A stretch of 63,996 nucleotides of DNA, counting the filler, from Malassezia furfur (Eukaryota), in the NCBI GenBank assembly GCA_052055015.1. It is 26 parts of 26 records of this genome, joined end to end, with 100 filler letters (N's around TTAATTAATTAA, not from the genome) between each part and the next. Parts side by side here need not be neighbours in the genome. Positions count along the whole stretch, not along the records: positions 2,537 to 4,959 come from JBQJIT010000915.1; positions 5,060 to 7,479 come from JBQJIT010000916.1; positions 7,580 to 9,993 come from JBQJIT010000917.1; positions 10,094 to 12,505 come from JBQJIT010000918.1; positions 12,606 to 15,017 come from JBQJIT010000919.1; positions 15,118 to 17,522 come from JBQJIT010000920.1; positions 17,623 to 20,019 come from JBQJIT010000921.1; positions 20,120 to 22,513 come from JBQJIT010000922.1; 18 more parts are not named here. The stretch is one strand, 5' to 3'. Both the position numbers and the translations under genes were made by a program. The first letter of the stretch is position 1. Every line of letters starts with the position of its first letter. This document shows positions 4,588 through 59,330 of this stretch, one piece after another. Under the pieces are notes generated by a model that was not told the origin of the DNA, did no database searches, and saw only the letters and a list, made by a program, of their open reading frames with translations.

Positions 4588-4959
4588 ATGCAGCGCGTCG
4601 ACTCCGGCGCGCTGGGCGACACCATGAGCCAGTCGGCGGTGATCAATATGATGCAGCCGATGGGCAGCATGAGTCTGAGCCCGTGTACGTGGCGTGGCTG
4701 ACTGCAGCAAGTCGCTATGTGGTGCTGGGCGCCAAGATCGGGCTGTTTGTGCTCGACCTCGAGAATCCGTATGCGCTGCCGCAGTTTTACGCGCACCGCA
4801 CCACCTGGGAGGTGGCCGACATCCAGTGGAATCCGCACCATGTGCGGCACGAGTGGATCGCGAGCACGTCGAACCAGAAGCTCGTGCTGTGGAACCTGCA
4901 CCGTCCCGAAGCTGCCAAGGCGCCGCTGCCCGCCGACGTCGTGGTGAACAGCGGCGCCT
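4588..4959 (+). CDS. MTC5: SEACAT/GATOR2 WD40 subunit Sea3/Mtc5/WDR59, N-terminus (partial); intron 4685-4707
   Basis: Removing a 23-nt intron gives MGSMSLSPSSRYVVLGAKIGLFVLDLENPY...TTWEVADIQWNPH...WIASTSNQKLVLWNL. Confidence 0.85.
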
Positions 4960-5059
4960 NNNNNNNNNNNNNNNNNNNNNNNNNNNNNNNNNNNNNNNNN
5001 NNNTTAATTAATTAANNNNNNNNNNNNNNNNNNNNNNNNNNNNNNNNNNNNNNNNNNNN

Positions 5060-5396
5060 CGCGCTCGAGCGCGAGGCCTGTGCGCTGCTCGCCGCGCGCG
5101 GCGTCGACGACGCGCTCGTGTTTGCGCGGCAGCGCATCGACCGCGCCGCGTTCTTTGCCGCGTTTGCACACGCCGTCTGGCCCCGCGTCGAGCGCCAGAG
5201 CGACGCGGCGATGCCCACGACGAGCGCAGTGCTCGGCGGGCTCGTCGCACAGGACCTACTGAACGCGCTCGGGCGGCGCGAGGCGCCGCTCGTCAACTGG
5301 CTGCTCCTCGACACCTCCACCGGCACGGCGCCGGTGTGTGCGGTCGGGACGCCGGCGCCCGCCGCGCGCGCGCTAGGCGCGGACGGCAGCCTGTAG
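5060..5396 (+). CDS. AOS1: SUMO E1 subunit Aos1/SAE1, C-terminus (partial)
   Basis: [33 protein letters not shown] is the ThiF-family C-terminal motif typical of Aos1/Rad31. Confidence 0.7.
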
Positions 5397-6317
5397 CGCG
5401 TCCCACGTCGCCTGGTCGATGTCGTAGTGCACACCATCACACACGGGCGTCTCCACGGGCGCCCACCACAGCGCCGCATGCGGGCCCAGCACCTGGCGCC
5501 AGTTGGCACGTGCGCCGACGTTGTACAGGTGGTGCCGCGGCGCGCGCGGCGTGCGCGGCAGCAGCTGCGCGTGTGCGCCGTCGCGCGGCGCCAGCAGCGT
5601 CGCGAGGCGCGCGTACGACGCGGGCGGCGCATCGTCGGGCATGTCGCCGTCGCGGCGCACGCGCTCCATGCCCTCGATGTACTCGAGTGTCGTGTAGTTT
5701 TTCGTCGCGAGGTACGCGTGGAACGAGGCGAACGGGGTGAGCGCGAGCGCAAACTGGGTGAGCGTGCGACGTACGACGAGCGCGACGACGGCGAGGGCCA
5801 TCCACGACACGGGCAGCGCAATGTCGTCCGTCGGCGCGTCGAGCAGGCGCGCAAACGCGGCGCCGAGGGTATACAGCGTGTAGAAGCACAGCGCGTCGGT
5901 GTACGCGAGCAGCAGCAGGAACGCGTGGTGGTTGCGCAGGCCGATGCACGTGTCCATCACCCACGGGCAGTGGTGGTCCATGCGCAGGACGCAGCGGCCG
6001 CACTTGCGGCAGTGGTGGCAGCGGTCGGGCTTGGGCGCCGCGCACTTGCTGCACCACCGCCGCGCGCCCGTCGAGCGCTTCACGGTGCGCACGGCCTCGG
6101 GCGCGAGGTCGGTGCGCGCGGCGGCCGACGTGCGAAGACCCGCGACGACGTACGACCACGCGCTCATCCCCGCGAGGAACGCGGCGACGCCCACACGCAC
6201 GGCCGTCTGCGCCGTGTCGCGCCACACGGGCACAATCACCTCGGCGACGAGCGTGAGCAGCGTCCAGGCGAGCAGCGCCAGCACCACCGCGCCGGACGCC
6301 TGGCCGAGCCGCGACAT
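5373..6317 (-). CDS. DHHC palmitoyltransferase (Pfa3-like); in-frame 21-nt intron 5754-5774
   Basis: [37 protein letters not shown] motif, [14 protein letters not shown], four TM segments. Confidence 0.9.
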
Positions 6318-6398
6318 GGTGGAGGCACCCAAGGGGGCGCCGGCGGGCGGCCGCCTCCACCCAGTGGAGGCGGCGCTCTGCCGCGCGGCGCGTCGAGG

Positions 6399-7377
6399 AT
6401 GGCCGAGCTGGACAGTGCGTGTGTGCCGCTCACCCAGAACTCGCGATCCGCGGCGTGCGCTCGTTCGACCCCAAGGCGGTGCACATCATCCAGTTCTTCA
6501 AGCCGCTCACGGTGATCGTCGGGCACAACGGCAGCGGCAAGACGGTGCGTGCACAGCTGACCCCAGACGATCGTCGAGTGCCTCAAGTATGCGGCGACCG
6601 GCGACCTGCCGCCGAACACCAAGGGCGGCGCGTTCGTGCACGACCCCATGCTCGCCGGCACCGACACGGTCAAGGCGCAGGTGCGCCTGCGCTTCCGCAA
6701 CACGCACGGCGTCCGCATGAGCTGCGTCCGCAACGTCCAAGTGTCGCGCAAGCGCACGGGCGCACTCACACTCAAGACGCTTGAGGGCGTGATTGGCGTC
6801 GACGACGACTCCGTGGACGCACACACGGTACGTGCGCCCACTCACCCAGCGCGCGGCCATCTCGACGCGGTGCGCCGAGCTCGACCAGGAAATGGCGCAC
6901 CTGCTCGGCGTCTCGCGTGCGATCCTCGAGCACGTCGTGTTCTGCCACCAGGAAGAGTCAAACTGGCCGCTCTCGGAGCCGGCCGTGCTCAAGAAGCGCT
7001 TCGACGAGATCTTTGAAGTGACACGCTACACCAAGGCGCTCGACGCGCTCAAGGCGCTCCGCAAGCAGCGCCAGCAGGACGCGCGCGTCGACGACGCCGA
7101 GCTCCGTGCGCTCCAGCACGACAAGGAGCGCGCCGACGCCGTCCAGCGCACACTCGACACGCTCGACGCGTCCATCGCCGAAAAGACACGCGCCGTCGAG
7201 GCGCTCGAGACCGACCTCGACGCGCGCACCGCCGCGAACGACGCACTGCGCGACGCCGCCGCACAGTTCCGCGACGTACTCGCGCGCGCCGCATCGCTCG
7301 AGGAGCGCCGCGACCTGTACGCGTCGAGCGCCGCCGAGCTGCGCCGCTCCGCGACGCTGCGCGACGCGCCGATCGCC
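6399..7377 (+). CDS. RAD50: Rad50 N-terminus (partial); introns 6415-6437, 6545-6566, 6828-6849
   Basis: Spliced: [17 protein letters not shown]...[40 protein letters not shown]...[20 protein letters not shown]. Confidence 0.97.
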
Positions 7378-10093: not shown

Positions 10094-11585
10094 CCCACGA
10101 CATGTAGTGCCCGGCGTCGGCCGCCGCGCCCTTGTGCGTGACGATCGCTGCAAGGTCGTACAACGCGCTCGGGTTGCACCCTGTGTCGCTCTTTAGTTCG
10201 GGGTCGATCACGGCCTCAATGTCGGCGCGCTCCTTGGCACGCAACGCGCGCTCCTCGTCGTCGGTGATCGCGTTGCCCTCTTGTCGCTCGGGGGCTTCGG
10301 CGGGTGCCTCACCCGAGGCCTCACGCGCCTTGGACGCGTCCTGCTGGCGTGCCTTGACGCGGCGGCGCACCTTGGCGCGCTCCTCGCGCTCCTTCGCCAC
10401 GGCCTTCACCTTCTGGCTAAGGGGCGCGACGCGCTGTTTCAGGTCGTCGGTGGCAAACACACTCGCGTCCAGCTCAAGCGGGAACTTGACTTTGCGCATA
10501 ATCTTGGTTTTTCTGTGTGAGTCGCGACGACGTACTTGTTGATGTCGCGGCGCCAGTAGAAACGCACAAAGTGCACAGAGAGGTACATGGGCAGACGTGC
10601 GATGCGGCTCTGCTCGGTGTACAGCGCCGTGCGGCCCAGGTGCTCTGAGTGCTTTTCAATCTGCTGCGTGAGCGTCTCGAGGATGCCCGCAGTCATCTCG
10701 TTCGTGGTGCTCGAAATGTTGCACTGCAGCACCAGGAACGGGTCGCTGTGCTGCGTCTTGGGCTCCTCGGGCGTCTCAGGAATCGAACGCCTGCGTCAGC
10801 CAGTCACGCACTCAATCGCCATGTGTCCGGTGAGGTATTCTTGCACAAAACGGTCCTGCCCACCGTTCAGTGCAAGGTAGGTACCGAGCGCGTTGAGGAT
10901 ACGCACGTACGCCTCTTCGGCGTCCTGCTGCGCAAAGCCACCGCCACCCTGTGCCATTTCGGCAAACTGCGGCGCGACCTTGCGCAGCAGCGTCAGGAAC
11001 ACCAGCGGAGGGAACGCCTCCGGCGCCTTGTTCATCTCGCGGAACAGGTCGCGCAGCGATGCCGTGAGGCTCGCCTCGCCGTCGCTCGCGCCGACGCTGC
11101 CCGCGTACTGCTCGAGTGCCGTGCTAAGTTCAGGAATGCACCGCAGCACCTGGAGCGTCGAGTTTAAATAGCACGTATTGCCGAGGTTTACGAGTCCGAC
11201 CTTGTGACCGCTCTGTGGTGAGCCCATGGACACGTACGGCCTGCGCGATCTCGTCGTCCTGCATGTCTTCGAGGAACTGCACGGGCTTGGCCGGCGCTTG
11301 AGGCAGCGCACCCGCGGCACCCAGCACCATGAACTGCTGACCCTGTGTGAGCCAAAGGACGTACGGCACGCGCGCCAATCTTGGACAGGTCCGTGTCGTC
11401 CTTGAGCAGGCCGCCCTTGACCATCACCTTTTGGCGCTCCGGGGGGACGTGCGTCAGCTCTGCGATCGCGTCCTTGAACGCGCGGCCCTGCGCACTTGTG
11501 TCGAGCTGCACATCGTACTGCGTAAGACATGCACTCCACGCACCACTTTCCCGTTGTGCTTGACTTTCACCGGAACCGTGCTCAT
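10094..11585 (-). CDS. UBP6: Proteasome deubiquitinase Ubp6/USP14 (3' partial); introns 11518-11543, 11343-11364, 11213-11237, 10791-10811, 10513-10535
   Basis: Ubl domain (VPPERQKVMVKGGLLKDD), GLVNLGNTCYLNSTLQ, QQDAEE, FVRFYWRRDINKKTKIMRKVKFP, THKGAAADAGHYMSW. Five micro-introns restore one frame. Confidence 0.97.
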
Positions 11586-11688: not shown

Positions 11689-12505
11689 ATGGCCAAGGTC
11701 GCGAAACGCACCAAAAAGTTCGTCAAGAACCGGCTCGAGCAGACGCTGCAAGATCGGCGCGACCACAAGAAGCGCTCGGCGCATGTGCGCGAGCGCCAGG
11801 CCAAGCAGGCGCGCCGGCCTGAGCGCGCGGCGCACGACGACGAGGACGAGGACGACGCGCCGGTGCACGACGCACCGCAGGACACGTGCGTTGCGAATGA
11901 CTGACGCAGGCCCGCGAATGACGTGGACGCCTTTTTGCAGGGCGGATTTGAGGCCGACATGGGCAGCGAGAGCGAGGATGACGATGCGAGCATCGCGGAC
12001 GATGCCGACCTCGACGCCATGGACGACGTGTCGGACGACGAGGGCGGGCATGTACAGGACCTCGAGAAGCTCAAGGAGACAGACCCCGAGTTCTATAAGT
12101 ACCTACAGGAGAACGACCGCGACCTGCTGCAGTTTGGGCAGGGCGGCGACGAGGCCGAGGCGATGGACGCCGACGACGACGACGAGTCCGAGGCGAGCGA
12201 CGAGGATGCGATCCCTGTGGTGACGCCCGAGATGCTGCGCCAGTGGCAGCGTGCGCTGCTGCGGCACAACTCACTGCGTGCATTGCGCCGCCTGTTGCTC
12301 GCGTTCCGCTCGGCGGTGTATACGGGCGACGAGGAGGGCGAGTATGCCTATCGCATTGAGGACGGTCCCATCTTTTCCAAGGTGCTCCTCACTACGCTGA
12401 AATACACGCCCAAGGTCGTGGCCCACCATGCGCCTGCGCGGCGCCTGGCCGACGGCCGGTACAAGGTGCCGACGCACACGAAGAAGTGGAGCACGTTGGT
12501 GCGCC
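11689..12505 (+). CDS. NOC2: Nucleolar complex protein Noc2 (3' partial); intron 11886-11909
   Basis: MAKVAKRTKKFVKNRL...DLEKLKETDPEFYKYLQENDRDLLQF...SLRALRRLLLAFRSAV. Confidence 0.92.
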
Positions 12506-17622: not shown

Positions 17623-18380
17623 GTGCGCCGCGCTGGCGCTGCGGGCAGCGGCGGAGGAGACGCAGAACGCTTGCGCGCGGCACGCGGCGCCGCTTCCGAC
17701 GGCGAGGCACGCGCGCCGCGCGGCTTCGCGTCCGCGGCCGCGTCCTTGCGCGCTGGCTTCGCGCGCACACCAGACGCATTCCACTTGCCGGGCCACGCGG
17801 CAAAGCCGCCGCGGTCGCCCAGCAGGCAGATAGCATCGTAGGCCGCGTCATCTACGGGCTGGACACTCAGGCGCGAGCGGTGCAGCAGCGGCATCGCGGC
17901 CACGCTCGCGAGCTGCGCGTCACTGAGGTACGCGACATCCGCACGCTCCGACTCGCTCAGGCCCTCGGCAAGGTGCTGCAGCAGCGCCAGCGGCACAAAG
18001 TGCGGCAGGCGGCGCACAAACTGCACGTCCACGCGGTACCACCGCGGGTCGTCTGGGCGCGTGTGCGGGTCAAAGTACGGGTGCTCGGCGTCCCACGCCG
18101 TGGGGTCCGGGTACCCCTCGCGACACACCTCGGCGAGCGCCGCAACACCTACAGGTAAGACACGCAGATACGTACCCGGGAGTTTGGTGTTGCTGTGGTA
18201 GAACAGCACACGGTGCCCCACCTTCATCTCGTCGCGGAGAAAATTGCGCGCCTGGTAGTTGCGCACGCCCTCCCATGGCGAGGTGCGCACGCGCTCAAAC
18301 GTCTCTGCGCTGAACGACACATCCACGCCGCGCACGCGGCGTTCGTCCGGCTCCGCCTTCAGCAGCCAATGCGTGGGCAT
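17623..18380 (-). CDS. EVE-domain protein (THYN1-like), 3' partial; in-frame 27-nt intron 18149-18175
   Basis: HWLLKAEP, PWEGVRNYQARNFLRDEMKVGHRVLFYHSN, EGYPDPTAWD..HPYFDP, RSRLSVQPV. Confidence 0.92.
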
Positions 18381-18453: not shown

Positions 18454-19129
18454 ATGGCGCGCCTGGGGGCCTGGTATCACCACTGTTTCGAGACGCGCCC
18501 GTGGGCGACGCTGATCGCCACCAACGGCACGCTCACGCTCGTGGCCGACGCGCTGGCGCAGAGCTACGAGCGCGAAAAAACCGCACTCGCACGCGAGCAT
18601 GAGAAAATTTTGCCCACGCCGACCGAGCATGTCCCGTGGGACTGGCACCGCTCGGGACGCTTCCTGCTCTTTGGCTCCGCGATGGCGCCGCTCCTCGGCG
18701 AGTGGAACCACTTCCTGGAGCACCGATTCCCGATGCGCAGCCCGACGGGCAAAATTATCGCAATGGGCCTCGTCCGCCGCGTCGCGATGGACCAGCTGCT
18801 GTTGTACGTGGCGCGCTCACCCCAGCGCACCGTTCGGCCTCGCGATGTTTGTCGGCTCCATGGGCATCATGGAGGGGCGCCGCACGCTCGACTCGCTCCA
18901 GGCCAAGTTCCACGACGTACGTCGCGCTCGCACTCACCGATCAGGTCTATGGCCCCGCGCTGCTCGCCAACTGGTCGATCTGGCCGCTGCTCCAGCTGTT
19001 CAACTTTGGCGTCCTCCCGTTGCGGTACGCTGCGCAGCCCACTCACACAGCTTCCGCGTGCCGTTCTCGGCGTCGTGCGGCGTCGCATGGACGCTCTATC
19101 TCTCGATCCTGAACCAAAAGGATGTGTAG
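18454..19129 (+). CDS. SYM1: Mpv17/PMP22 family protein (Sym1-like); introns 18804-18825, 18917-18944, 19025-19050
   Basis: Spliced: VADALAQ...WDWHRSGRFLLFG...RRVAMDQLLFAPFGL...ALLANWSIWPLLQLFNFGVLPLRFRVPF...WTLYLSILN. Confidence 0.9.
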
Positions 19130-20119: not shown

Positions 20120-21008
20120 CGGACGCACGGTGCAGGATAGCTACGTTGTCGCGCCATTGCCCGGCGACAAACACATAGTCGTCGTCGAGCGCAAGCGCCT
20201 GCACGCGGTACGCCTCGTGCAGTGTATTGTCGAGGGGGTAGGTGCGCACGACGCGCGCGGTCGCAATGTCCGTCTCGACGTACTGGTCGTCCTTTTTGCT
20301 GCATGAGCCACGCACGTACCAAGCGAGTACCGGGTAGAAGAGGCACAGCGCGCGCCCCGGCTCGGCCCACGAGCGGTGCCACACATAGTGGCCGCGCGCC
20401 GCGCCGTGTGCGCCGTGTGCCGCGCGCCACAGGTGCGCGCGCGTCGGCATGTACTCGTCGTGCAGCAGCCATCCGTGCGAGACGCCGAGGTGCTTGCGGG
20501 AGAGGACGTCGTCCTGTACGGCCGGCGTCGCCCACAGGACCGCGCCGGTCGCGGCGTCGAGCGCACGCAGGTTCGCCGACGTGCTCTCGATCACGATGCC
20601 TTGCGACGTGCTGGGTGAGCGGGGGCCGACGTACTCGAGGGCGACGCGCTCGACGTGCGCTGGAGCCTCTTCGGCGTCGGGCGGGCGGTAGACGGTGCGC
20701 CGGGGGTGCAGCGCCGCGGGTATAGGGTGTGTGCGCCCCCACGCACGCCTGCGTGCGTGCCAGCGGCGCTGGACGTCGCACAGGGTCGCGGCGCTGGCAA
20801 ACACCGGCACGGTGCTGTGGAGCGCCGCGTCGAGGGGCGTGTCGCGTGCGGCGCGCGCCCACACGCTTTCGTCGAGGCACACGGCGTGCCATTCTGTGTG
20901 AGCAGGGAGCGGGAGCGTACCTCGGCACACGCGGCACGCGCGCGCGAGGTCCCACGGGTCGAGCCACGCAAGTACCGCCGCGAGCACCTCGGGCGGTACC
21001 GCGTGCAT
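20120..21008 (-). CDS. F-box protein with beta-propeller-like region (paralog A, 3' partial); in-frame introns 20894-20920 and 20299-20319
   Basis: MHAVPPEVLAAVLAWLDPWDLARACRVCREWHAVCLDESVW is an F-box once the 27-nt intron is removed. Confidence 0.8.
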
Positions 21009-21078: not shown

Positions 21079-22513
21079 CTATGGCGTGGGCTCCCGCTCG
21101 GGCTCCCGCTCGGGCGCGGGCTCGGGCTCGGACTCTGACTCGGGCTCGGAGCTCGCGAGGATCGAGTCTGCCTCTGCCTCGAGCTCTTGCAAGGCAAAGT
21201 CCAGTGCGGGGCTCGCGAGCTCGGCGTCCATGTCCGAGGTGTCAGCGTCCGCGTCGGCGTCCGCGTCGGCGTCCGGCTGCGCCTCGGCGGTGAGGAGCGC
21301 GATGTGGTCGAGCGGCATGGGCGGCGGCGTCGCGGCGGTCGCATGGTCGAGCGTCTCGGGCGGCTTGGCGCGGTCGTCAAAGTGGAAGCCGGTCACCATG
21401 CTCGAGTCGTGGTGCAGGCACTCGGCCTGGTAGCCGGGCGGGAAGTCGTCGGGCGACACGTTGATCTCGCGGTCGAGGGCCTGCCGCGTGACGCAGTAGA
21501 CGCCCGTGGCGTCCATCTGGACGCAGCTGCACCCGCGGAACTGGTCGATGGGCCCCGTGAACCAGTCGAACGCGTTCGGCGGGTCGGACCACTCGTACAC
21601 GGCAAAGGGCACGTCGATGCGCCGCCCGTCGGCGTCGCGCCCGTGCGTCGGCGCATTCAGGTCGAGCACGGTGAGCGTCTCGTACACGGCGGCGACGCGG
21701 CCGTTGGCGACGCTCAGCTGCCCGTGCATTTCGGTGCGCGGGCGGCGGCGGAACTGCGGCGCGTCGTCGGTGCCGTCGGCGGGCGGCACGTCGCGCTCCG
21801 TGGCAAAGAGGTGCATGCGCAGCGGCTGCGTCGGTGTCTCGCCCGCGAGCACCGCGCGGTAGTCGGGCACGAGGAGCAGCCCCGACTCGCCGAGCACGAC
21901 GAGCGTGCGCGCGTCGCGGTCAAAGTGCACCGCGTGCCAGGCGTAGCACAGCTGTGCGGGGTCGCGCGGCGCGCGGTGCGCGAGCTGCGCGAGCCAGCGC
22001 GGGGCGCGCACGCGCTCCTGCTCGCGGAGGAGCAGCGCGTGGCGCTCGCCCGTGGTGCGCGGCACGGAGCGGAAGCAGTGCGGCACGCCGTGGCGCTGGA
22101 CGTGCTCGGCGAGCGTCCAGACGACCGCGCCCGTGTCGCGCCGCAGCGCCGAGACGCGGTTCGCGCCGAAGCCTACGAGAAAGAGGTAGGTGTCGTCGAA
22201 CTCGATGTAGTGGATGTTGCGGTGCACATGCAGCGTGTCGTCGAGCGGGACGCGGCGCACGAGCGACTTGGTGCGCACGTCGAGCTCCGCGTACGTGTCA
22301 AAGATGGTGACGCTGCGTCAGGCGGCAACACAACGTACAAGGCGAGCGTGGGGAACTGCAGGCGGTACGCGCGCACCATCTCGGGCACGTCGAGGATCGT
22401 GTAGCGCACAAACTCGCCGCGGTGCGCTTCGTGCGCGTCCGGCACGAGGCGCGCGCTGCGCCAGATCTCAAAGTGCCCCGGCGCGTCGCGGTCGAACACG
22501 AGCCAGCCGTTGT
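21079..22513 (-). CDS. Paralog B of the adjacent F-box/propeller protein (5' partial); intron 22313-22338
   Basis: GWLVFDR...FEIWR...RGEFV...RAYRLQFPTLAF...PLDDTLH...IHYIEFDDTYLFLVG aligns by eye with paralog A. Acidic tail. Confidence 0.7.
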
Positions 22514-32558: not shown

Positions 32559-33219
32559 GCGGCCCCAGGGGCGCTTTGGCGGCCAGCGCCCGCGCCCAGG
32601 CCTCGGCACGCACCCATGCGCCGCCGTGCCGCACGCCGAGCCCATCGAGGGCATCGGCGGCGTCCAGCAGCGCATCGCGATCGACGTCGGGCACGTACGC
32701 GGCATGAACGACCGCCACGATGCACCGCAGGGCGGCCGCCGAGCACGACGGTACTCGTGCGGACGTGCACCGCACGGCGCATAGATCAGGATCCAGCGTG
32801 TCGGCATCGATCGCGCGCAGGTCGTCCTGCAGTGGGCAGAGGCACGCGGCGACCGTGGCCTCGCCGATGCGCAGGTGCCGCGCGAGTCTTGGCACGAGGT
32901 CCGTGCGTCGCTCATCGGTATACATCCAGTGCACAACGTCGCGCACAAGCTGTGCGGCCTGCGCGCCCCGTGGCGAGCGGCGCCACAACCGCTGCACGCC
33001 CCTGGGCCAGAGCCACGACGCAAGTGCGCCGCGCAGCCGCGCGCGGATCATCCCTGCGTGAGTGTGTCGCGTACCCTGATGCGCGTGCTCGGTACCGTCC
33101 GCCAGCGCCCACGTGTACACCGTTGCATCCGTGGAGCGCCGCGCCTCAAGCGCGCGCAGATCTGCGCGCCATGCGTGCTGCGCGTCGGCGGCGATCGCGT
33201 GCGCCCACGGCGCGCTCAT
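32559..33219 (-). CDS. Hypothetical protein, possibly degenerate BTB/POZ (3' partial); in-frame 21-nt intron 33054-33074
   Basis: EHAHQGMIRAR and VVHWMYTD resemble BTB elements. Micro-intron GTACGCGACACACTCACGCAG. Confidence 0.45.
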
Positions 33220-37497: not shown

Positions 37498-38868
37498 CGC
37501 GGTCGGCGCCGCGTCTGGTGCGTCCTGCGTTGGCGCCGGCGGCGGCGGCGGCGGCGGTGGCGCCGATTGCACCGACTGCCGCAGGACAGTCACCACCAAC
37601 GGGTACTCGTACGCAAGGAACAGTACACCCGCGAGGAACGCCACGGCAAACTGCGCGTCAGTCATCCACGTACCATGCCGAGACTCAGGGAGCTGTTCAG
37701 CGACGCGCCCACAATCAGGTGCGCAAGGCACACATGCGCGTCGTACATGGTCTGGATAAAGAACGACACGCCCGATACCTTGGCGATCGCGCTCTCGGTG
37801 CGCACGCGCTCGGTCATGCGCGTCATCAGCACGAGCTGCACTAGGACGATGGCCATCATCCCGAGCAGGTACCACCGAGTGTCGCCCCAGAATTGGCGCA
37901 TCGCGATTCCTTCGAGCGCCGGTGTGCCGATACGCAGCGCACACGTGTCCGACACACCGACCACCGCGAGGTGCATGGCCGGGAGCCGCCGCGTCACGAT
38001 ACCGTTGGGGTGCGCGAGTTGGTCCTCGCGCAGGCGCAGTGCCGCTTCGTCCACGCGCGCGCCGAGCGGCGCGAGCTGGCCGTAGAGATGCATCGAGCAG
38101 TTGTTTGCGCCGATGGCGCTCGGCGCATCGGATGGCGCAAGCGGCTCGTGGTGCGCAAGCATCGCATCGATGCGCTCGAGGCGGTCGTCGATGTCGTGTA
38201 CCACCGCCGTGTAGGTATCGTTGACGAGCTGTGTGTCGTTGAGCGGCACCATCGCGAGCACCTCGCGGATGTCGAGGATATGCGGCGAGGTCCGCGGCAT
38301 CCCGACAATGTACAGGCGTCCCGTGTGGGGCACCAGCACCCCGTTGACGTCGAGCTCGATGCCGACGCGGCTCTGGCTGGTGTTGCGCGGCAGGGTGACG
38401 ACCATCGAGCCCCACACCTGCGACACGTTGGTGTGCTGCACATCCCGCTCGTATAGCTGCGCCTCGAGGCGCGTTTTCTTGGCGAACCAGTCGAGCGCGC
38501 CCCGATCGAGCGCCACGCGCGTGTCGTTGGCGTCGGGCGCGGCGTAGGCGTGCGTACTGAAATTCCCGTCAAAGAACCCGCTCACGTTGCGCGGGAACAC
38601 ATAGTCGCCGGTGACCGGCGCATAGATATCGTGCAGCGGCGCCGCGAGTGCCGCGTCGTCGTCGTGCACCTGCGTCAGCGGCGCAACGTACAAAGGTCCA
38701 GTTGCCCTGCTCGGTGGCATTGTGCGTGAGCCAGCCGTGCACTTCGGTGCGCTCGCGCGTGATGCGCGCACGCGCACGCTCAAGCACCTCGCGGTCGTCG
38801 CTCGCGCACACGCCGTACGCGAACAGCGCCAGGAGCGCCAGGCCGACGATGCGCACGGCCCCCGCCAT
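37498..38868 (-). CDS. TUL1: Transmembrane E3 ligase Tul1/Dsc1, N-terminal half (3' partial); introns 38670-38691, 37651-37673
   Basis: Signal peptide, FPRNVSGFFDGNF lumenal motif, CSMHLYGQL, VGVSDTCALRI, RTESAIAKVS..SFFIQTMYD TM region. Confidence 0.75.
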
Positions 38869-40023: not shown

Positions 40024-41310
40024 ATGGCTGCGGACGCTTCCGGCGCGGCGCCGGACGAGCGCTACGAAGAAAAAGACGAGGCGTACTTTTCGTACTATGC
40101 AATGCTCACGCACCAGGCGCAGATGCTGCAGGACGCGGTGCGCACGTCTGCGTACCAGAGCGCGATCCTGCAGCACGCGCCCGCCTTCCAAGGTATGTCC
40201 ATCTCTCACGCAGACCGCCGTGTGATGGACGTCGGCGCGGGCAACGGCATCCTGTCGCTCTTTTCGATCCAGGCGGGCGCCGCGGTGGTGTATGCGGTGG
40301 AGGCGTCCGGCGTCGTGGGGTGCCTGCACCAGCTCGCGGCCGCCGCCGCGGACGCCGAGGCGCCGGTGAATGCATGGGCACGCGACAAGCTCGCGGTCGT
40401 GCACGGTAGGTGCGCGCCACTGACGCAGCGCGCGTAGAGGACGTGACGCCCGCGATGCTCGCGGAGCGCACGCCGGCGGGCGCGCCGGCGGGCGAGCAGG
40501 TGGATACGATCGTGTCCGAGTGCCTGGGGGTGGTGCGTGTCGCGGCTGACGCAGCTTTTGGTGCACGAGCGCATGTGCGAGTCGTTTCTCGAGGCGCGCG
40601 ACCGCTTCCTTAAGCCGGGCGGCGCGCTGTTCCCGCGCACCGGCACGCTGTGCTTCTCGCTGCTGTCCGATGCGCGGCTCTGGCAGGAGGTGCACACGCG
40701 CGGCGAGTGGTGGAACACGAGCAACTTCTACGGCGTGGACCTGACGCCGTTCCTCGGCGCGTCGCGTGCCGAGGCGTTTGCGAGCCCGGTGGTCGGCTGC
40801 TTTTCGCCGACGCACATCGTCGGGGCGCAGACGGACGCGGCGACGGCGGCGCTCGTGTGCCCCGAGGACGCGGTGAACAGGTACTTGGTCGACTTTTCCA
40901 CCGTGTCGCTCGAGGATCTGCGCACGTTTGACGTGCCGATCGCGTTCGACTGTGTCACGGAGCCGGTGGTGGTGCATGGGCTCGGCGCGTGGTTCGACCT
41001 GTCGTTCCTGCAGCCCGGCGAGGAGGCGGACGAGGCGGCGGGCGCGGGCGTGATGACCACGTCGCCGTTCGCGCCCGCGACGCACTGGGCGCAGGTGCGC
41101 CTGCTGTTCGCCGAGCCGCTCGCGCTGAACCGCGGGCAGTGTGTGCTGGGCACGCTGCACTTTTCCGCAAACGCGAGCCGCTCGTACGACATCCGCGCCG
41201 AGCTGCATGTCCCGCTGTCTCCCGAGACGCCCGAGGTGCCGCTGTACCGGCGCACGGCGCTCTGGAAGCTCGACAAGCAGACCTACTCCTGGGAAACGAC
41301 GGGCGCGTAG
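40024..41310 (+). CDS. CARM1: Type I arginine methyltransferase, CARM1/PRMT4-like; introns 40193-40213, 40406-40428, 40533-40554
   Basis: [83 protein letters not shown]. Confidence 0.85.
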
Positions 41311-42983: not shown

Positions 42984-44761
42984 ATGGAGCGTACGTGCAC
43001 ACAGCTAACGCAGTCAAGGTGCTCTACTCTCTTGACACGAGCCCTCACCATACCATGATCGCGCGCGCGTCGCAGCGCGTCGCCGTACGCGTCGCGCACG
43101 CGCCTGCACCGCTCGGGACGCTCGGGCGGGTCGCGCTGAAGACGTGTTTGGGCGTGATCTGCGTCGCAAGCCCGGAGCTCGTGCTGGACCGCGCGAACGA
43201 CTACATTGTGTACGCCGTCGACCCGGAAGAGTCGCACCGCGCCGCGCAGCGCTCGCCGACGCACCGCGCACCCGACGCGGCGCGGGCCGCGCCTCATGCG
43301 AGCCCGTCGCGGCGCAGCGGCACGCCACACGTGCTAGTCGGCAAGGGCTTCCTGAGTGGCGCGCTTGAGGAGCCGGGCGACGGCACCTCGTACGTCACCG
43401 GGCGCGTCCGCACCGAGCCGCGGCACACCTACTCGGCGTTTTCCTCGGACGAGGACGAAGAGGGCGACGACGCGTCCAACGACGTGCTCGAGGTCGTCCT
43501 CCGCATGAAAGAGGCGCCACAGCAGAGCCGCGAGCACCTCGCAACGCTCATGCAGGGCCTCGGCGAGGCACGGCACACGCCGCCAGCGCGCGCAGCGTCG
43601 ACGTCTGCCCCAGCGCCGGCACCCACACCGGCCCCCGCGCCCGCCGCGCCGTCGTCGCCGACCGCCGAGCAGCGGCAGCTCATGTCGATGCTGCATGTGA
43701 TTGCCGGCGCACTGCCCGACCAAAAGACGCGCGCGCCGCCGCCGAGCGCACCGAGCGCGCCGACCAGCGGGCGGGCGGACCGGATCTGCTATAACTGCGG
43801 CACGACCACGTCCAAGACGTGGCGCATGCTGCAGCTGCCAGCGGGCGAGCCCGTGCCGCACCCTGCCGCGGAGCGCCCGCCAGCAGACGCCGTGCCGCTT
43901 ACGTGGACGCCCAAGTACGCGCGGGCAACGCAGTGCGTCGCCGACGGCGAGACGCGATGGCAGGCGTGCAATGCGTGTGGCCTCTACTTTACGAAATACA
44001 ACACGTCGCGCTCCGAGCGCATGTGTGCAGGCGCGCGCGCCGACAAGCGCCGCGACGCACGCGCGCCGAAACGCATCAAGACCGAGGAGACCGGCAGCGG
44101 CAAGCCGCTCCGAGCGCCGCCTGCCGCGCAGCACACGCGCGCGCTGCAGGACCTGAGTGGGAACGTGTCGCCCGTGCGGCGCACGGCGTCGAGTCCCGTG
44201 CGCTCACAGCGCATGCCCCCGCCCGCCGCGAGCCCACGCACGGCGCGCAACGTACGTGCGGTCACGCCCGGACAGTACGGCGTGCCGTCGTACCTGATCC
44301 ACTCGTCGCCCAACACGGCGATGCACCGCCTGCTGAGCGAGACGGAGCACGACCTCGACGAAATGCACGCGCACGGCGATCTGCCGACGCCCGGCAAGCT
44401 GCTGGCGCTGCGTGCTGCACAGACCTCGCCGAGCCCCGTGCGCCGCAGCCCACGCAAGCAGCCGCACGGCACGCGCGGCGCCGTCAACCCATACGCGACG
44501 CACGCAAGCGGCACGACGCCGCTGTTTGCGCACGCGACGCCTTCCTCGCCGGCGCTGCCGCTCGACGAGCACGCCGAGGGCCCGCCGAGCCCCAGTGCGG
44601 AGCGCGCAAGCCGCGCCGAGCGGCGTGCACCGCGCGCGTCGCCTGCGGCGCCCGTGCGGCCCGCGCACGACGACGTGTTTGGTGCACATGCATGGCTGCA
44701 CACGCACGCTGCGCCGACGCTCGCGCCCGCCCCGGCGGCCGACACAGCGCCCGCACCGTCG
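42984..44761 (+). CDS. Ams2/Spt21-like GATA transcription factor (3' partial); intron 42991-43013
   Basis: Spliced N-terminus MELKVLYSLD...GRVALKTCLGVICVASPELV..DYIVYAVDPEE (Ams2/Spt21 N domain). GATA finger CYNC...CNACGLYF. Confidence 0.8.
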
Positions 44762-47425: not shown

Positions 47426-47601
47426 TTACTTCGCGCGCGCGGCGTTGTTCGAGAGGTTGTCCACCTGGCGCATCGTCGACACGGCGAGAATCTGTGTAAG
47501 GTTCCGAATGCCGCTGCACATACATGGTAGATCACAATCAGGATCATCGCACCGCTGCCGAGCGCGTTCGAGATCGTCGTGAGCACAGTGTCGGTAATCA
47601 T
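47426..47601 (-). CDS. OST4: Oligosaccharyltransferase small subunit Ost4 (47 aa); intron 47492-47523
   Basis: Spliced: MITDTVLTTISNALGSGAMILIVIYHILAVSTMRQVDNLSNNAARAK*. Confidence 0.88.
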
Positions 47602-47750
47602 CGTGGCAAGAGATAGGCAGGGCAGGTCGAGGTACGCAAGTGACGTGCGGACTGTCCGAATAAATTTTTTGCTGCGAGAAATCACGCAAGCGGTGCTTTG
47701 TCATGACGTCATACCCAATTGGAAATCTATGAGCGCGCTGGGCCAGGAGC

Positions 47751-48566
47751 CTACTCCTTTCGCCGCTTGCCGGTAGTCGACACCTTTTTGCGTGCGCCGG
47801 CGCCCGACTTGGCACGCGCACGATTCGCGGCACGCCGGATTTCGGCCTGCTGGTGGTTGCGCTCGCGCTGCCGATGCCGCTCTTCGGCACGCTCAGCGGC
47901 CGAGAGGTAGTGGTGCTCGCGCTTTGCCGGCGTCGGCGCCGCGGTTTCCGTAGCAAACGTGTGCGTAGCATTCGCGACCTCGGGCTCGAGAATCGACGTG
48001 AGGCTTCCTGAGGGGCGTGTGTAGGACGGTTTTTTGGGTTTGCCCGGCTCCTCGCGCGCCTCCCTCCGCGCGGCGCGGCGCGACGACGGCGGAAGCTGTT
48101 CGCGCGGCGCGGGTTTCGGCGCAGGCGCGGCCCAGTCGTCCACGTCGAGTTCCTGTACGGTGACATGCGCGCGGCGCTCGTCGTTCTCGAAATCGTGCTC
48201 CTCCTGCATGCGCGCCTCCTCGTCGTCCGCCTCGTCGTCCGACAAGAGGCCCAGCGCGCGGCGCTCGGCGCGCACATTCTCGGCGGCCTGCTCCTTGCGC
48301 GCCAGTGCGGCATCGCGCCGGCTCTGTCGGATCTCTTCGCGGATCTTGGCCTGCTTGGCGTCGTGCGCGTGCTGCTTGCGCTGCTGCTTGCGTTTCGAGA
48401 AACCCGTGAGGTATTCGCGCCGCGCGTCCTCATCGAACGTGACCGTCTGCCGCTTCTCGAAGCGCCGCTTGGGCGGAGGTGGGCGCAGCGGCGGCGCGCG
48501 CTTCTTGAGTACCGGCTTGCTCTTTTGTGCCGACTCGGTGAGCTGCTGCAGCGTGCTGCCGGCCAT
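47751..48566 (-). CDS. RRP17: rRNA processing protein Rrp17/NOL12
   Basis: TVTFDEDARREYLTGFSKRKQQRK signature, basic C-terminus. Confidence 0.9.
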   Translation of the reverse strand: MAGSTLQQLTESAQKSKPVLKKRAPPLRPPPPKRRFEKRQTVTFDEDARREYLTGFSKRKQQRKQHAHDAKQAKIREEIRQSRRDAALARKEQAAENVRAERRALGLLSDDEADDEEARMQEEHDFENDERRAHVTVQELDVDDWAAPAPKPAPREQLPPSSRRAARREAREEPGKPKKPSYTRPSGSLTSILEPEVANATHTFATETAAPTPAKREHHYLSAAERAEERHRQRERNHQQAEIRRAANRARAKSGAGARKKVSTTGKRRKE

Positions 48567-49741: not shown

Positions 49742-51610
49742 GCCGCCCGACGCGCCGCTCCCCGCGGCGCCGCCGCTCGCGCGCCCGCTGCTCGGCGGGC
49801 TGTACCTGACGGACCTGCTCGTGGTGTCGGTGTCGCTCGTCGCCAACCTGCTGCGCACCTGCTCGCTCGCCGAGCTGCTCGACATGGTGTGGTTCGGCGC
49901 GGTGTACCTGCGTACGTGATGCGCACTCACCCAGTCTTCCGCCTCGCGGCGCAGATGCGCTCGCGCTGGATGCTCAGCAAGCGCCAGATGCGCCTCTCGG
50001 GCTCCGGCGCACCGTGCTTCTTCTCGGTGTTTGTGCTGTGCGGCGCACGGTACATCCTGATGCGCTTCCCGTTCCTGCTGCCGCGCGTCACCCTCGCCCA
50101 GGAGACCACGGGGCCCCTCGTGCAGTGGCGCACGGGCGGCGCCGTGGCGCACCTCGTCGCGCCGCTCGGGCCGCCCACCGAGCCCGGCGCACCGATACCC
50201 CCCTTTCGCGCCTACTGGATCCGCGGCGAGCGCCGCGCGCCGCCGACCGCGCGCCGGCGCATCGTCGTGCTGTTCGTGCACGGCGGCGGCTTCGCGCTCG
50301 GCTCTGTCGCGCTGTACACCGAGCCGCTGCTCCGCGTGCTCGGGCACGTCGCCAAGGCGAGCGCGGGGCGCGTGCGCGCCGAGTGCGTCGCGCTCGAGTA
50401 CGACCTCGTGCCCGGCGTGCGCTTCCCCGAGCCGCTGCTGCAGTGCCTGCGCTGCTACGCACACCTCGTCGAGTTCGAGCGCATCCCGCCCGAGGAGATC
50501 GTGCTGTGCGGCGACAGCGCCGGCGGCGGGCTCGTGCTCTCCATGCTGCTGTGCCTCACGGGCCAGGCACGCGACGCGCCGCTCCTCGGCACCGAGCGCG
50601 ACTGGAGCCTGCTGCCGCTGCCCGCGCGCGCGGTGCTCATCAGCCCGGTCGTCGACCTGCGCCCGCACGCGGCGCTCGTCTTCGACGGGCTGCGCCAGCT
50701 CGCCGCGGCGCGCGACCTGCGCGCCCGCAAGGCGGTCGCGCGCCGCCTGCTCGCACAGGGCACGCCGAGCGCCCTCGACTTTCTCGCGCCCGAGGCGCTG
50801 CTGCACTACGCGCAGCTGTACACCGGCGTGCTGCGCCGCCCGCGGCGCGCCCAGGGGCCCGCCGAGACGCTGCGCAAGCTCCTCGCCTCCTACGCCCCGC
50901 GCCCGGGCGTGCTGGCCCCCGTGCAGACGCTCGCGTATTACACGCTGCGGCTGCTCTCGCGCCCGCTGCTGCGCGGCGCGGCGCGCGCCGCGTACGGCGC
51001 GCCCGTCCCGGCGTACGCCAGCGCGCACGCGCCCGTCGTGCCGCCCGGCGAGGCCCAGAGCGACGCGGTGCTGCCCCCCGGGCCGCTGTACCGCACCTCG
51101 GCGCTGCTGGGCGTGCACGGCGCGGAGCAGACGACGCTCGCCACGAGCCCGCTGGTGAACCCGGCGCTGGGCGCGTGGGACGAGGTGCACCTTGCGCGCG
51201 GTCTGTACGTCACGTACGGGTGCAACGAGGTGCTCGCGCCCGACATTGACGCCTGGGCGACGCGCGTGCGGCGCGCGTGGGCGGCCGCCGACTGGCCCGC
51301 GGGCCTCGACGTGCACGTCGAGCCGGGGCCCGACGGCGTGCACGTCTGGCCGTTCGTCACCATGTACCTGGCCGCGCGGCTGTCGAAACGCGAGCGTGGG
51401 CTGCGCACGCTCGCGCACGCGCTGCTGCAGCTGTACCCGGACGAGGCCGTGGACGAGGGCGCGGACCTCTCGCCGCAGGTCGACGTCGACGCGGTCGAGT
51501 TTGGCTCGCCGGCGTCCATGCCGAGCGACTACGAGGAGGAGCACACCGAGGACCGCGCCGCGCAGCTTGCCTGGGAGCAGGAGCTGATGCGCCTCGGCCT
51601 GCGCGTGTAG
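49742..51610 (+). CDS. HSL-family alpha/beta hydrolase (lipase/esterase, Say1-like) with hydrophobic N-terminus (5' partial); intron 49912-49934
   Basis: FVHGGGF oxyanion motif, CGDSAGG nucleophile elbow, LISPVVD, GCNEVL, GVHVWP. Confidence 0.88.
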   Translation, partial: AARRAAPRGAAARAPAARRAVPDGPARGVGVARRQPAAHLLARRAARHGVVRRGVPAYVMRTHPVFRLAAQMRSRWMLSKRQMRLSGSGAPCFFSVFVLCGARYILMRFPFLLPRVTLAQETTGPLVQWRTGGAVAHLVAPLGPPTEPGAPIPPFRAYWIRGERRAPPTARRRIVVLFVHGGGFALGSVALYTEPLLRVLGHVAKASAGRVRAECVALEYDLVPGVRFPEPLLQCLRCYAHLVEFERIPPEEIVLCGDSAGGGLVLSMLLCLTGQARDAPLLGTERDWSLLPLPARAVLISPVVDLRPHAALVFDGLRQLAAARDLRARKAVARRLLAQGTPSALDFLAPEALLHYAQLYTGVLRRPRRAQGPAETLRKLLASYAPRPGVLAPVQTLAYYTLRLLSRPLLRGAARAAYGAPVPAYASAHAPVVPPGEAQSDAVLPPGPLYRTSALLGVHGAEQTTLATSPLVNPALGAWDEVHLARGLYVTYGCNEVLAPDIDAWATRVRRAWAAADWPAGLDVHVEPGPDGVHVWPFVTMYLAARLSKRERGLRTLAHALLQLYPDEAVDEGADLSPQVDVDAVEFGSPASMPSDYEEEHTEDRAAQLAWEQELMRLGLRV

Positions 51611-52314: not shown

Positions 52315-52321
52315 CTACGGT

Positions 52322-56919: not shown

Positions 56920-57168
56920 NNNNNNNNNNNNNNNNNNNNNNNNNNNNNNNNNNNNNNNNNNNNTTAATTAATTAANNNNNNNNNNNNNNNNNNNNNNNNN
57001 NNNNNNNNNNNNNNNNNNNTGCGCTGACGTCGGCGGGCCTGGGCGACGTCGGGGCGCGTGCGGCGGCGCCCGACGACACGCAGCGGCGCGGCCCCATCAG
57101 TCTGCATGCGGCGGCAGTGAACAAGGCGGCGGCGCGTACGGCGGTGGCTACGGGGCGGGTGGGGGACG

Positions 57169-58634
57169 TCAAAAGTCGAGCGAGTGCTTCGTCGTGGCTG
57201 GGTCAGTAGGGCGCACGTACCGCGTTTCGCGTCGCGCACCTCGCGCAGGAGCTTGGCGGTGGCGCGGTCGAACTGCTCGACGAACGGGCGCAGGCTCGTC
57301 TTTTCCCACTCGCCCTTGGCGTGCGGCGCGGCGGGCGACGACGCGGCGTGCTGCGCCTTGTGCCGGTTGAGCTCGCGGAGGAGCTGCGCGACGGTGGGCG
57401 CGCCGCTGTGCGGGTCAAAGTGCTGGATCTGCTCGACCTCCAGCGGCACACACACGCGCCCCGTCGAGGGGTGCACCACGAACGGCGACTTGAGCAAGTG
57501 GTTCTGGCGCTTGGACACCTCGGCGTCGATGCGGGGGTAGGTATACTGCAGCACGATGTCCTCGATCGCCGCGACCCACGCAGGGCGCACGCGCTCGGCG
57601 CTCTTGCTCGCCGTCTCGAGCACGTCGTCCCACTTGCGCACGCTCGAGCGCGGCGCGGCGGCCCACTTGGCCTCGAGGCGCGCGACCGCCTCGCTGTCGT
57701 TTGCCGGGAGCAGCGCGAGCAGCGTCTCCCACCGCGCGCGCTCGCGAAACACGTCCTGGTCGGTGAGGATCACGTCGAAGAACGCGCGCTGCAGGGGGCC
57801 GCGCGCGGCGGACGCCGTGCCCTGGGAGCCCGAGTTGGCCACGACCTCGGCGCCGAGCGCGCGGCGGAGGCTCGGGTGCAGCACGCGTGGCGCGCCGGGC
57901 GCCGCGTTGCCGAGCGCGACCTTTTTCGTCTGGTTTGCGCTGCCGCGGATCACCTCGGTCCAGCCGACGAGCGCCTTGCGTGCCTCGTCGGGGAGCGCGC
58001 GTGCCTCGGGGTCGGACACCCAGCAGTGGATACCGCGGCGCCCCGAGTACACCCAGACGATGTGGCGGAAGCCGAAGTCTTCGCGGAGCACGCTGTCGAG
58101 CACCTCGACGGCGACCGCGATCAGTTTCCAGCACCGCGCGCAGATCTGCTTGTCGGAGCAGCACGTGCGGATCTCGTCGTAGTCGGTCATGTCGATATCG
58201 AACACGAGCTCGCGCTCCACGGGCCGGAAGCTCGCCTTCTGCATCGTCTTGCGGTCCTTGGGCTTGGCGCTGTACACCGGCCCGATCTCGAAACGCGACG
58301 GGTTCAGGCGGCACACCTCGCGCTTCCACTCGTCCCAGCTCGAGAAGCTCTGGTAGCGCAGGTACGCGTCGTTCTGCAGCGTGAACGCAAACTCGCGGTG
58401 CGTGAAGCTGCGCGTCAACGCCACGTCCTGGTTCAGCCAGGTGAAGAGCGAGCGGAAGGGCAGCAGCCGGCGGTAGTAGGCGAGGAGCGCCATCGGGTCG
58501 ACGGACTCGTCGCGCTCGAGCGCATGCTCGTCGACCATCGCCAGCACATCGTCCAAGCTCGTGTCGGTGTACAGCGGCGCGGCGGGCGCCGGCGCCCCCG
58601 CACTCGTCGCACGCACCGGGTCGTGGGCGGCCAT
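57169..58634 (-). CDS. PRI1: DNA primase small subunit; intron 57198-57220
   Basis: REFAFTL, ERELVFDIDMTDYDEIRTCC, WVYSGRRGIHCWVSD, YPRIDAEVSKRQNHLLKSPFVVHPSTGRVCVP. Splicing gives the end KRATTKHSLDF*. Confidence 0.97.
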
Positions 58635-58692
58635 GGCGTGTCCGAAAGCCGCGCGCGCGCGCGTCGCGCGTGTCTTGGTCAGCCTCCACACC

Positions 58693-59330
58693 ATGGTCCG
58701 GTGGGCGAGCGGACGGACCAAGGTGCAGCTGAAGCTCGCGGTGCAGCGCGCGCACATGCTGCAGGCGAAGCGCGAGTCGCTTGCGAAGAAGGCGCGGCGC
58801 GATATCGCGGACCTCGTGGTGCGCGGCAAGGTCGAGACCGCGCGCGTCAAGACCGAGTCGCTCATTATGGACGACGTGCACATCGAGCTGCTCGAGCTGC
58901 TCGAGCTGTACTGCGAGACGCTCTACGCGCGCTTTGCGCTGCTCGAGATGCCGGGGTACGTATGCCGCACTCACACAGCACGGAGCCGCCCGAGGCGATC
59001 CGCGAGCCGCTGCTCGCGATCCTGCATGCGGCGCACCGCACCGAGCTGGCCGAGCTGCACACGCTGCAAGAGATGCTCGCGGCGCGGTACGGCCCCGAGC
59101 TCGCCAAGGACGCGCTCGAGAACGTGGACGGGTGCGTGTCGCCGCGCGTCACGCGCAAGCTGGCGTTCCACATGCCGCCGCCGGAGCTGGTGGATGCGTA
59201 CATGGACGAGAGTACGTCGAGAGGCTCACGCAGTTTGCAAGGCGTACGATGTGCCGCTCCCCGGCGCACACGAAGATGCGGGCGCGGCGGACACGGCGGG
59301 CGCGAGCGGCGAGGCCGCGGGCGACGCGGC
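58693..59330 (+). CDS. IST1: ESCRT-III associated Ist1 (3' partial); introns 58956-58978, 59212-59233
   Basis: TKVQLKLAVQR...RRDIADLV..GKVETARVKTESLI.DDVHIELLELLELYCE...LVDAYMDEICKAYDV. Confidence 0.93.

Follow-up and report, generated by a model that had tools for sequence, protein, structure and literature searches.

Are segments of little more than 20 nucleotides (nt) within Malassezia coding sequence genuine introns, and does their smallest size mark a limit of the spliceosome? The question is raised by a stretch of 63,996 bases from Malassezia furfur (hereafter the window), for which a preliminary description listed 35 introns with GT and AG ends and a hard floor at 21 nt, taken as the sign of a spliceosome working close to a steric minimum. 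Judged from sequence, the segments are very probably genuine introns of the major (GT-AG) spliceosomal type, belonging to a Malassezia genome and built on a minimal four-part plan. The floor holds in this sample, and the way in which it arises calls for a different wording. The window joins 26 contigs in falling order of length, from 2,436 down to 2,308 nt, at joints that each consist of 44 N, TTAATTAATTAA and another 44 N (2437-2536, 4960-5059 and so on to 61739-61838). Because the window is made of joined contigs, gene ends at the joints are artefacts and contigs lying side by side are not genomic neighbours; introns within contigs are unaffected by the joining. Guanine plus cytosine (G+C) content across the window is 65–70%.

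The intron set and its support

The set was rebuilt without the earlier list, using a codon log-odds score trained on 12 long open frames. A motif-free scan considered all GT..AG segments of 15–150 nt, retaining segments flanked by strongly coding sequence in frames compatible with the intron length. It returned 24 frame-break clusters, the clean ones being 21–29 nt long with the pattern GTRCGT...CTSAC...YAG. Next, a motif scan combined with frame scoring yielded 38 motif-defined candidates, and a gene finder restricted to these took up 35, giving models in which all intron-containing genes are stop-free. The 35 introns, the first at 4685-4707 and the last at 59212-59233 (Table 1), range from 21 to 32 nt (median 23, mean 23.8) and are 64% G+C. 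Their lengths are 21 nt in five cases, 22 in seven, 23 in nine, 24, 25 and 26 in three each, 27 and 28 in two each, and 32 in one. In 25 the length is not a multiple of three, and two of the 10 multiples of three carry an in-frame stop, so that 27 introns (25 + 2) are needed to restore the frame or to remove a stop. Total, range, median, the figure of 27 and the span 4685..59233 are those of the preliminary description, whose three cited examples, in RAD50, UBP6 and the NTA1-like gene, were recovered at identical coordinates; its length histogram differed in two classes only, having counted six introns of 21 nt and two of 24 nt.

Chance matches were estimated on both strands with the motif GT[AG][CT]G[CT], 6–60 nt, CTNA[CT], 0–4 nt and [CT]AG. 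Up to a length of 32 nt it occurs 35 times, against 2.75 ± 1.72 (maximum 9) in 200 dinucleotide-preserving shuffles, a 13-fold excess; these 35 matches are the 38 candidates minus three with GTAGG donors, a set different from the 35 introns of the gene models. Between 37 and 77 nt there are 11 matches where about 10.8 are expected, a chance-level count, so that longer introns bearing these signals are not enriched. The change of reading frame across a candidate equals its length modulo three in 36 of 38 cases, compared with one third by chance; candidates 6415 and 57198, which deviate, are next to exons of 16 and 29 nt. A negative control with GC in place of the initial GT gave 11 matches in the window, none of them a credible GC-AG intron: ten were frame-inconsistent and one was nested in a verified GT intron.

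Homologues, Pfam profiles or structures support 20 of the 35 junctions: five in UBP6, four in the NTA1-like gene, three each in the arginine methyltransferase and Mpv17-like genes, two in RAD50, and one each in the Ist1, EVE and DHHC genes. For UBP6 the comparison comprised 16 homologues from Malassezia, smuts, Mucorales, Ascomycota and others. The spliced UBP6 protein furthermore aligned as a single segment (residues 8–459, 59% identity) to an uninterrupted frame of a metagenome contig (L001) and was likewise collinear with uninterrupted frames in three more (L010, L012 and L019). This check is independent of gene calls; the four loci are intronless genes or transcript-derived contigs. No Malassezia was present among the 80 metagenome loci scanned for orthologues, the best locus being 58% identical. 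Four stop-free multiples of three were open to testing (5754, 18149, 36327 and 40193), and each behaves as an intron. For two of them structures were informative: the read-through form of 18149..18175 aligned to human THYN1 (3eop, 5j3e) with an exact nine-residue gap over the 27-nt intron, and that of 5754..5774 aligned to human DHHC20 (6bml) with a seven-residue gap over the intron, which gives moderate support as the gap lies in a variable loop. Signals, frame and homologues thus agree with the earlier assignment to GT-AG spliceosomal-type introns of a G+C-rich Malassezia.

Two genes were compared with public gene models. The spliced NTA1-like model, with four introns removed, is identical in 317 of 317 residues to an NCBI M. 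furfur protein (P0176); public annotation therefore already removes these introns. The spliced methyltransferase model (406 residues, three introns) matches an M. brasiliensis protein of the same length (P0122) without gaps at 387 of 406 residues (95%). All best named matches of window proteins are from Malassezia, and these sequence matches assign the window to M. furfur or to a near-identical relative.

Several public records from the genus depart from the spliced form at the same junctions. Two proteins of other Malassezia (P0179 and P0183) carry in-frame inserts of eight and nine residues at junction 36023-36050, UBP6 of Malassezia sp. CBS 17886 (P0004) carries a 16-residue insert at junction 11213-11237, and further records show inserts, deletions or frame divergence at 40193-40213 (P0138) and at 18804-19050 (P0224, P0233, P0237). 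At their start the inserts resemble a translated donor, and they close with ..L-T.. or ..V-T-N-R-Q, as expected of a translated CTNAC..CAG. By these signs they look like orthologous introns of about 24, 27 and 48 nt that annotation failed to remove.

Several points weigh against the interpretation of the segments as genuine spliceosomal introns of M. furfur or a near-identical relative. Introns in untranslated regions, and motif-less introns of poorly coding genes, escape the scans used here. The species identity rests on one 100% match and one full-length match of 95%, and for the UBP6 exon no M. furfur entry was matched, the best named match being M. psittaci at 74%. The homologue check reaches 20 of 35 junctions, and four of the remaining 15 introns (20894, 20611, 20299 and 32084) leave the frame open if retained. 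Lastly, some homologue rows have gaps or inserts at junctions, the gapless fraction falling to 8/14 at NTA1-like junction 1 and to 11/15 and 10/15 at Mpv17-like junctions 2 and 3.

Length range and rival explanations

Short introns are an established trait of the genus, as the preliminary description had stated, and a mean and a median of 30 base pairs (bp) are published for two of its species. For M. sympodialis, Table 2 of Zhu et al. 2017 (PMC5389616) lists 5350 introns averaging 30 bp, of which 99% have support from RNA sequencing (RNA-seq), at about 0.7 introns per kb, and a cumulative distribution of intron sizes is published there as a figure. These are GT-AG introns of the same genus; the window differs in being much richer in G+C and in its shorter introns (mean 23.8 and median 23 versus a mean of 30). 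The accessible portion of that account (PMC5389616) gives no median, floor, branch motif or spacing. In M. restricta the average is 37.2 and the median 30 bp, as listed in Table 1 of a further study (PMC9241646); according to the methods text of PMC6473144, the shortest introns permitted in its annotation were set at 20 and 15. The M. restricta and M. arunalokei annotations, too, thus recognize very short introns, with a median 7 nt above that of the window, and the consulted parts of these papers give no description of signals (PMC9241646, PMC6473144). A review states that Malassezia genes hold "very short introns" (PMC7426719), and RNA-seq evidence for introns has been used in annotating M. 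furfur genes (bioRxiv 10.1101/638429). With 21–32 nt and a median of 23, the window falls within the span of about 20–40 nt of Malassezia-type short introns.

The explanation that competes most strongly accepts the introns as real and attributes the sharp 21-nt floor and the range of 21–32 nt to a small, motif-guided sample; genome-wide, some introns would be shorter and the tail would be much longer. We rate its probability somewhat below even. The sample indeed comprises just 35–38 introns in 62 kb, spread over 26 contigs of about 2.4 kb each. The congeneric averages given above point the same way, as does the legend of Figure S8 on M. sympodialis, which mentions maximum sizes in the right margin (PMC5389616), and the CBS 17886 UBP6 insert hints that another species has an orthologous intron of about 48 nt; moreover, annotators set minimum lengths of 15–20 (PMC6473144). 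On the other hand, motif-free GT-AG scans over 12–400 and 15–150 nt detected no credible intron outside 21–32 nt, and a listing of all same-strand pairs of coding segments likewise gave none. Shorter candidates were all nested in longer introns with better donors, and matches above 32 nt occur at chance level.

Longer segments proposed by the scans were rejected. When a naive gene finder gave equal prior weight to lengths of 12–400 nt, long "introns" appeared in weak or antisense models only, and none of them survived. Among the frame-break clusters of 52–130 nt, some are paired short introns (18804 with 18917, 40406 with 40533, 11213 with its neighbour, 35575, and 59212). The clusters 35316-35391, 58353-58379 and 59844-59966 are antisense or negative-score artefacts, and 55073-55202 is a gene boundary.

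A second possibility, which we consider improbable, is that a minority of the 35 is coding sequence that matches the motif by chance, namely the four introns whose frame remains open on retention (20894, 20611, 20299 and 32084). No homologue or profile spans these junctions, and about 2.75 chance matches to the motif are expected in the window. All four, however, have strong donors and branch motifs at canonical spacing, and the stop-free multiples of three that could be tested proved to be introns without exception. In addition, the donor of 20894 coincides exactly with the point where the Pfam F-box-like match breaks off (profile position 29 of 47), whether the exon is scanned by itself or as part of the read-through.

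That the segments are not spliceosomal introns at all, being instead assembly frameshifts, programmed frameshift sites or some other excised element, can appeal to the high fragmentation of the assembly but is hardly conceivable. Random errors would not place GTRYGY, CTNAC and YAG at constant distances 13 times more often than chance, nor bring homology back exactly at GT and AG, as seen in the 20 junctions tested, nor yield a public protein residue for residue.

Signal layout and the 21-nt floor

The 35 introns share one set of signals. The donor is GTACGT in 20, GTGCGT in seven, GTACGC in three, GTATGT in two, and GTATGC, GTAGGC and GTAGGT in one each; the two commonest forms account for 27. 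The extended 5' splice site, whose pairing with U1 and U6 is a prediction, conforms to GTRYGY in 33 introns and to GTAGGY in two. All 35 contain a branch motif of the form CTNA[CT] (CTCAC 19, CTGAC 11, CTTAC 3, CTAAC 1, CTCAT 1), with CTCAC or CTGAC in 30, and in 30 a purine precedes the motif. In the usual fungal branch consensus, CTRAC, the branch A follows a purine. Here the base before it is C in 20 introns (CTCAC 19, CTCAT 1) and G in 11. Every intron has GT...AG ends, the acceptor being CAG in 34 and TAG in one.

Spacing is similarly constrained. The branch A lies at base 16–22 of the intron, and once at base 27; from there to the intron end the distance is 5 nt in 26 introns, 6 nt in five, 7 nt in two and 8 nt in two. 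The 3' splice site is the first AG past the branch A in all 35, and in six an unused AG upstream of the branch motif is passed over. With just 1–4 nt between branch motif and YAG, a polypyrimidine tract is absent from all 35 introns; such a tract is a metazoan-type feature and not a defining one in fungi. The linker between donor and branch motif is 73% G+C (35% C, 38% G, 14% T). The architecture of the preliminary description (GTRYGY or rarely GTAGG, a spacer, CTNAC, and YAG 1–4 nt further on, with no polypyrimidine tract) recurred unchanged in the rebuilt introns. Scans of the window returned no Rfam family, small nuclear RNA genes included, and no transfer RNA.

The plan has four parts: a 5' splice site of 6 nt, a G+C-rich linker of at least 6 nt, a branch motif of 5 nt, and a 3' splice site formed by the first AG after the branch A, mostly 5 nt downstream. 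This layout leaves no space for a polypyrimidine tract. The introns would be excised by the spliceosome through intron definition, with branching presumably at the A of CTNAC; their removal from messenger RNA is backed indirectly by the public M. furfur model and by the RNA-seq-supported introns of M. sympodialis. The branch motif may be recognized first and the 3' site then found by scanning to the first AG, independently of a tract.

Two minima are observed in these introns: the branch A never occurs before base 16, and it is never less than 5 nt from the 3' end. The two distances show no correlation (r = 0.05), and their joint minimum of 21 nt is realized in five introns where 5.9 are expected under independence. 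The floor of 21 nt is best read as two separate spacing limits added together, not as a limit on total length. In the window, no credible intron shorter than 21 nt was detected by scans that allowed lengths down to 12–15 nt; nested candidates of 17–20 nt each lie inside a longer intron with a better donor and fail on frame, donor quality or homology. The hard floor of the preliminary description is hence borne out for the sample, which is small, but does not stand as a limit on total length. Its steric minimum is tenable as a limit of the signal layout of this lineage, where both spacing minima could have a steric origin, but not as a universal one: other eukaryotes splice introns of 15–20 nt, so that 21 nt is no general limit of the spliceosome, and in Stentor introns measure 15–16 bp, as stated in the relevant passage of PMC13644364.

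Typical fungal introns share the GT-AG ends, a 5' site of the GTNNGY type and a CTNAC-type branch near the 3' end, but they are two to three times longer, and the window differs from them also in having C as the commonest base before the branch A (19/35 CTCAC). In Cryptococcus neoformans, for example, the mean given is 63 bp (PMC8476143). The ciliates offer introns of the same length class that are likewise cut down to their splice signals. Ciliate genomes with ultra-short introns are rich in A+T, unlike the introns of the window with their 64% G+C. Among Paramecium introns, stop-free multiples of three are depleted. In the window, multiples of three are not depleted, with 10 of 35 against about 11.7 expected and two of the 10 containing a stop, although the sample is small. 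Introns of about 25 bp are quoted for Paramecium and Nyctotherus in the abstract of PMC5014332. Myxozoans and dicyemids, with a median of 22 bp in the corresponding passage of PMC13644364, come close to the window's 23 nt, but are parasitic animals. In that 2026 paper (PMC13644364), the groups set apart for introns below 30 bp are ciliates, microsporidia and dicyemids; Malassezia is not mentioned.

Any novelty of tiny introns as such is largely removed by the public M. furfur and M. brasiliensis models and by the published values of about 30 bp. In those models the same introns are removed, but they are annotation records and not a description of the phenomenon. No paper giving an intron motif, spacing or floor for any Malassezia was found in a literature search of open papers. 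The phenomenon is thus known and annotated, while the detailed architecture and the very low median in a G+C-rich species may be undescribed. What interest remains is descriptive and lies in the rigid four-part layout and in a median of 23 nt, which would place the set among the shortest known. A more far-reaching interpretation, which we regard as possible but doubtful, is that the M. furfur introns are among the shortest and most rigid of any culturable, genetically tractable eukaryote. They would combine a median of 23 nt with 64% G+C, a nearly fixed 5 nt from branch to 3' site, a minimum of 15 nt from 5' site to branch and a predominance of CTCAC in a layout undescribed in print, with lineage-specific recognition of branch and 3' site that dispenses with a tract reader of the U2AF type. 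On this rigid-layout interpretation the two minima would be directly testable. A transformable yeast with 21-nt introns would be a handy system for asking how close 5' site, branch and 3' site can come.

Introns this small do not exceed the default limits of many aligners and gene finders; in one aligner in wide use, gaps of less than 21 nt count as deletions. The 21-nt floor described here is no artefact of such a setting, because it was derived from sequence alone. Several public Malassezia protein records visibly keep or mis-handle orthologous introns, and for this reason the signal layout (GTRYGY, at least 6 nt, CTNAC, first AG) offers a practical rule for annotation repair.

Individual introns and neighbouring features

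Table 1. Introns of the gene models and further candidates in the window. Homologue counts give rows that are gapless at the junction; Pfam positions refer to the profile.
Position	Strand	Length (nt)	Gene or junction	Signals	Observations
4685..4707	+	23		GTACGT..CTGAC..CAG	Not a multiple of three, in-frame stop; coding on both sides
5754..5774	-	21	DHHC palmitoyltransferase		Multiple of three, no stop
6415..6437	+	23	RAD50, after 16-nt first exon	Good motif	Exon too short for homology
6545..6566	+	22	RAD50, GKT/TIVE	GTGCGTGCACAGCTGACCCCAG	Pfam AAA_23 2-33, then 34-114
6828..6849	+	22	RAD50		Pfam AAA_23 34-114, then 115-194
10513..10535	-	23	UBP6 junction 5, FYWRRDIN/KKTKIMRKV		16/16 homologues; Pfam UCH to 163, then from 166
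10791..10811	-	21	UBP6 junction 4	GTGCGTGACTGGCTGACGCAG	Multiple of three, in-frame stop; 16/16 homologues
11213..11237	-	25	UBP6 junction 3		14/16 homologues
11343..11364	-	22	UBP6 junction 2		15/15 covering homologues gapless within 5 residues
11518..11543	-	26	UBP6 junction 1, KHNGK/VYD		13/16 homologues
11886..11909	+	24			Multiple of three, in-frame stop; coding on both sides
18149..18175	-	27	EVE/THYN1-like		Multiple of three, no stop; Pfam EVE to 54, then from 58
18804..18825	+	22	Mpv17/PMP22-like junction 1, DQLLF/APFGLA		13/15 homologues
18917..18944	+	28	Mpv17-like junction 2		11/15 homologues
19025..19050	+	26	Mpv17-like junction 3, PLR/FRVPF		10/15 homologues, others missing or diverged; Pfam Mpv17_PMP22 to 43, then from 45
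20299..20319	-	21	F-box gene	Branch CTCAT	Multiple of three, no stop; motif and frame consistency only
20611..20634	-	24	F-box gene		Multiple of three, no stop; motif and frame consistency only
20894..20920	-	27	F-box gene		Multiple of three, no stop
22313..22338	-	26			Not a multiple of three; flank coding scores 21.0 and 17.2
32084..32104	-	21	No Pfam family		Multiple of three, no stop; motif and frame consistency only
35497..35521	+	25	NTA1-like junction 1		P0176 identity; 8/14 homologues, variable region
35575..35599	+	25	NTA1-like junction 2	Donor GTAGGC	P0176 identity; 12/14 homologues across LPEMALTGY
36023..36050	+	28	NTA1-like junction 3, ICMDLN/PY		P0176 identity; 12/14 homologues, two Malassezia exceptions with 8- and 9-residue inserts
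36327..36350	+	24	NTA1-like junction 4		Multiple of three, no stop; P0176 identity; 10/14 homologues
37651..37673	-	23	DUF2921-type membrane protein		Not a multiple of three, stop inside
38670..38691	-	22	DUF2921-type membrane protein		Not a multiple of three; coding on both sides
40193..40213	+	21	Arginine methyltransferase junction 1		Multiple of three, no stop; 12/13 homologues
40406..40428	+	23	Arginine methyltransferase junction 2	Donor GTAGGT	12/13 homologues
40533..40554	+	22	Arginine methyltransferase junction 3, SECLGV/LLVHERM		13/13 homologues
42991..43013	+	23	Ams2/SPT21-GATA gene, after 7-nt first coding exon (ME/K)	CTAAC; good motif	
47492..47523	-	32	Ost4		Not a multiple of three; exon 1 = Pfam Ost4 1-26 of 34; exon 2 too short for profile match
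49912..49934	+	23	Alpha/beta hydrolase, after 28-nt first exon		Not a multiple of three, stop inside; coding on both sides
57198..57220	-	23	DNA primase small subunit, before last 8 codons	Good motif	
58956..58978	+	23	Ist1		Not a multiple of three; Pfam Ist1 to 76, then from 80
59212..59233	+	22	Ist1		Not a multiple of three; motif and upstream coding sequence
4090..4110	-	21	Weakly coding minus-strand gene	Perfect motif	Uncertain candidate, unused by gene model
33054..33074	-	21	Weak coding context	Perfect motif	Uncertain candidate; motif only
47727..47754	-	28		GTAGGC..CTCATAG	Doubtful candidate

Some entries of Table 1 call for comment. Of the exceptions at Mpv17-like junction 2, three homologues diverge past the junction, by their look as mis-called frames, and one has an insert upstream. 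A 32-nt alternative at methyltransferase junction 2 (40406-40437) would drop three residues and is ruled out by the homologues of that protein (12/13 gapless). In the Ams2/SPT21-GATA gene, the Pfam Ams2-SPT21_N match begins at the first residue of exon 2, the start codon in the preceding exon being a presumed one. The length of the spliced primase C-terminus is compatible with the 18 residues that are left in chain 8g9f_D past the end of the alignment; a nested 19-nt alternative within 57198..57220 has a poor donor. No PDB match was obtained for exon 3 of the Ist1 gene.

Of the candidates outside the gene models, 4090-4110, which is reached by a minus-strand coding segment (4098-4529, score 37), and 33054-33074 lie in weakly coding regions with no Pfam family and may belong to unrecognized genes or untranslated regions. 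The third, 47727..47754, is probably not a coding intron, since an upstream Nop25-like frame stops inside its first bases and its branch A is just 3 nt from the end.

Short first coding exons of 7 to 42 nt followed by a tiny intron were observed at 6399-6414, 42984-42990, 49884-49911, 11544-11585 and 22339-22379, a bias of introns towards the 5' end as in other intron-poor yeasts. In the F-box gene (20064-21008, minus strand) all three introns (27, 24 and 21 nt) are stop-free multiples of three, and their retention would lead to in-frame insertion rather than truncation.

The frame-break cluster 9082-9187 may correspond to an antisense overlap. In the same region, two plus-strand open reading frames (7532-8233 and 8237-9427, scores 66 and 73) lie in the same frame and are separated by a single TAG at 8234-8236, while a minus-strand open reading frame (8267-9592) overlaps the second. 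The TAG was considered as part of a stop-containing intron, an option put aside as no GT-AG segment with a branch motif spans it and the minus-strand frame ends beside it; the region is most simply read as two convergent gene ends.

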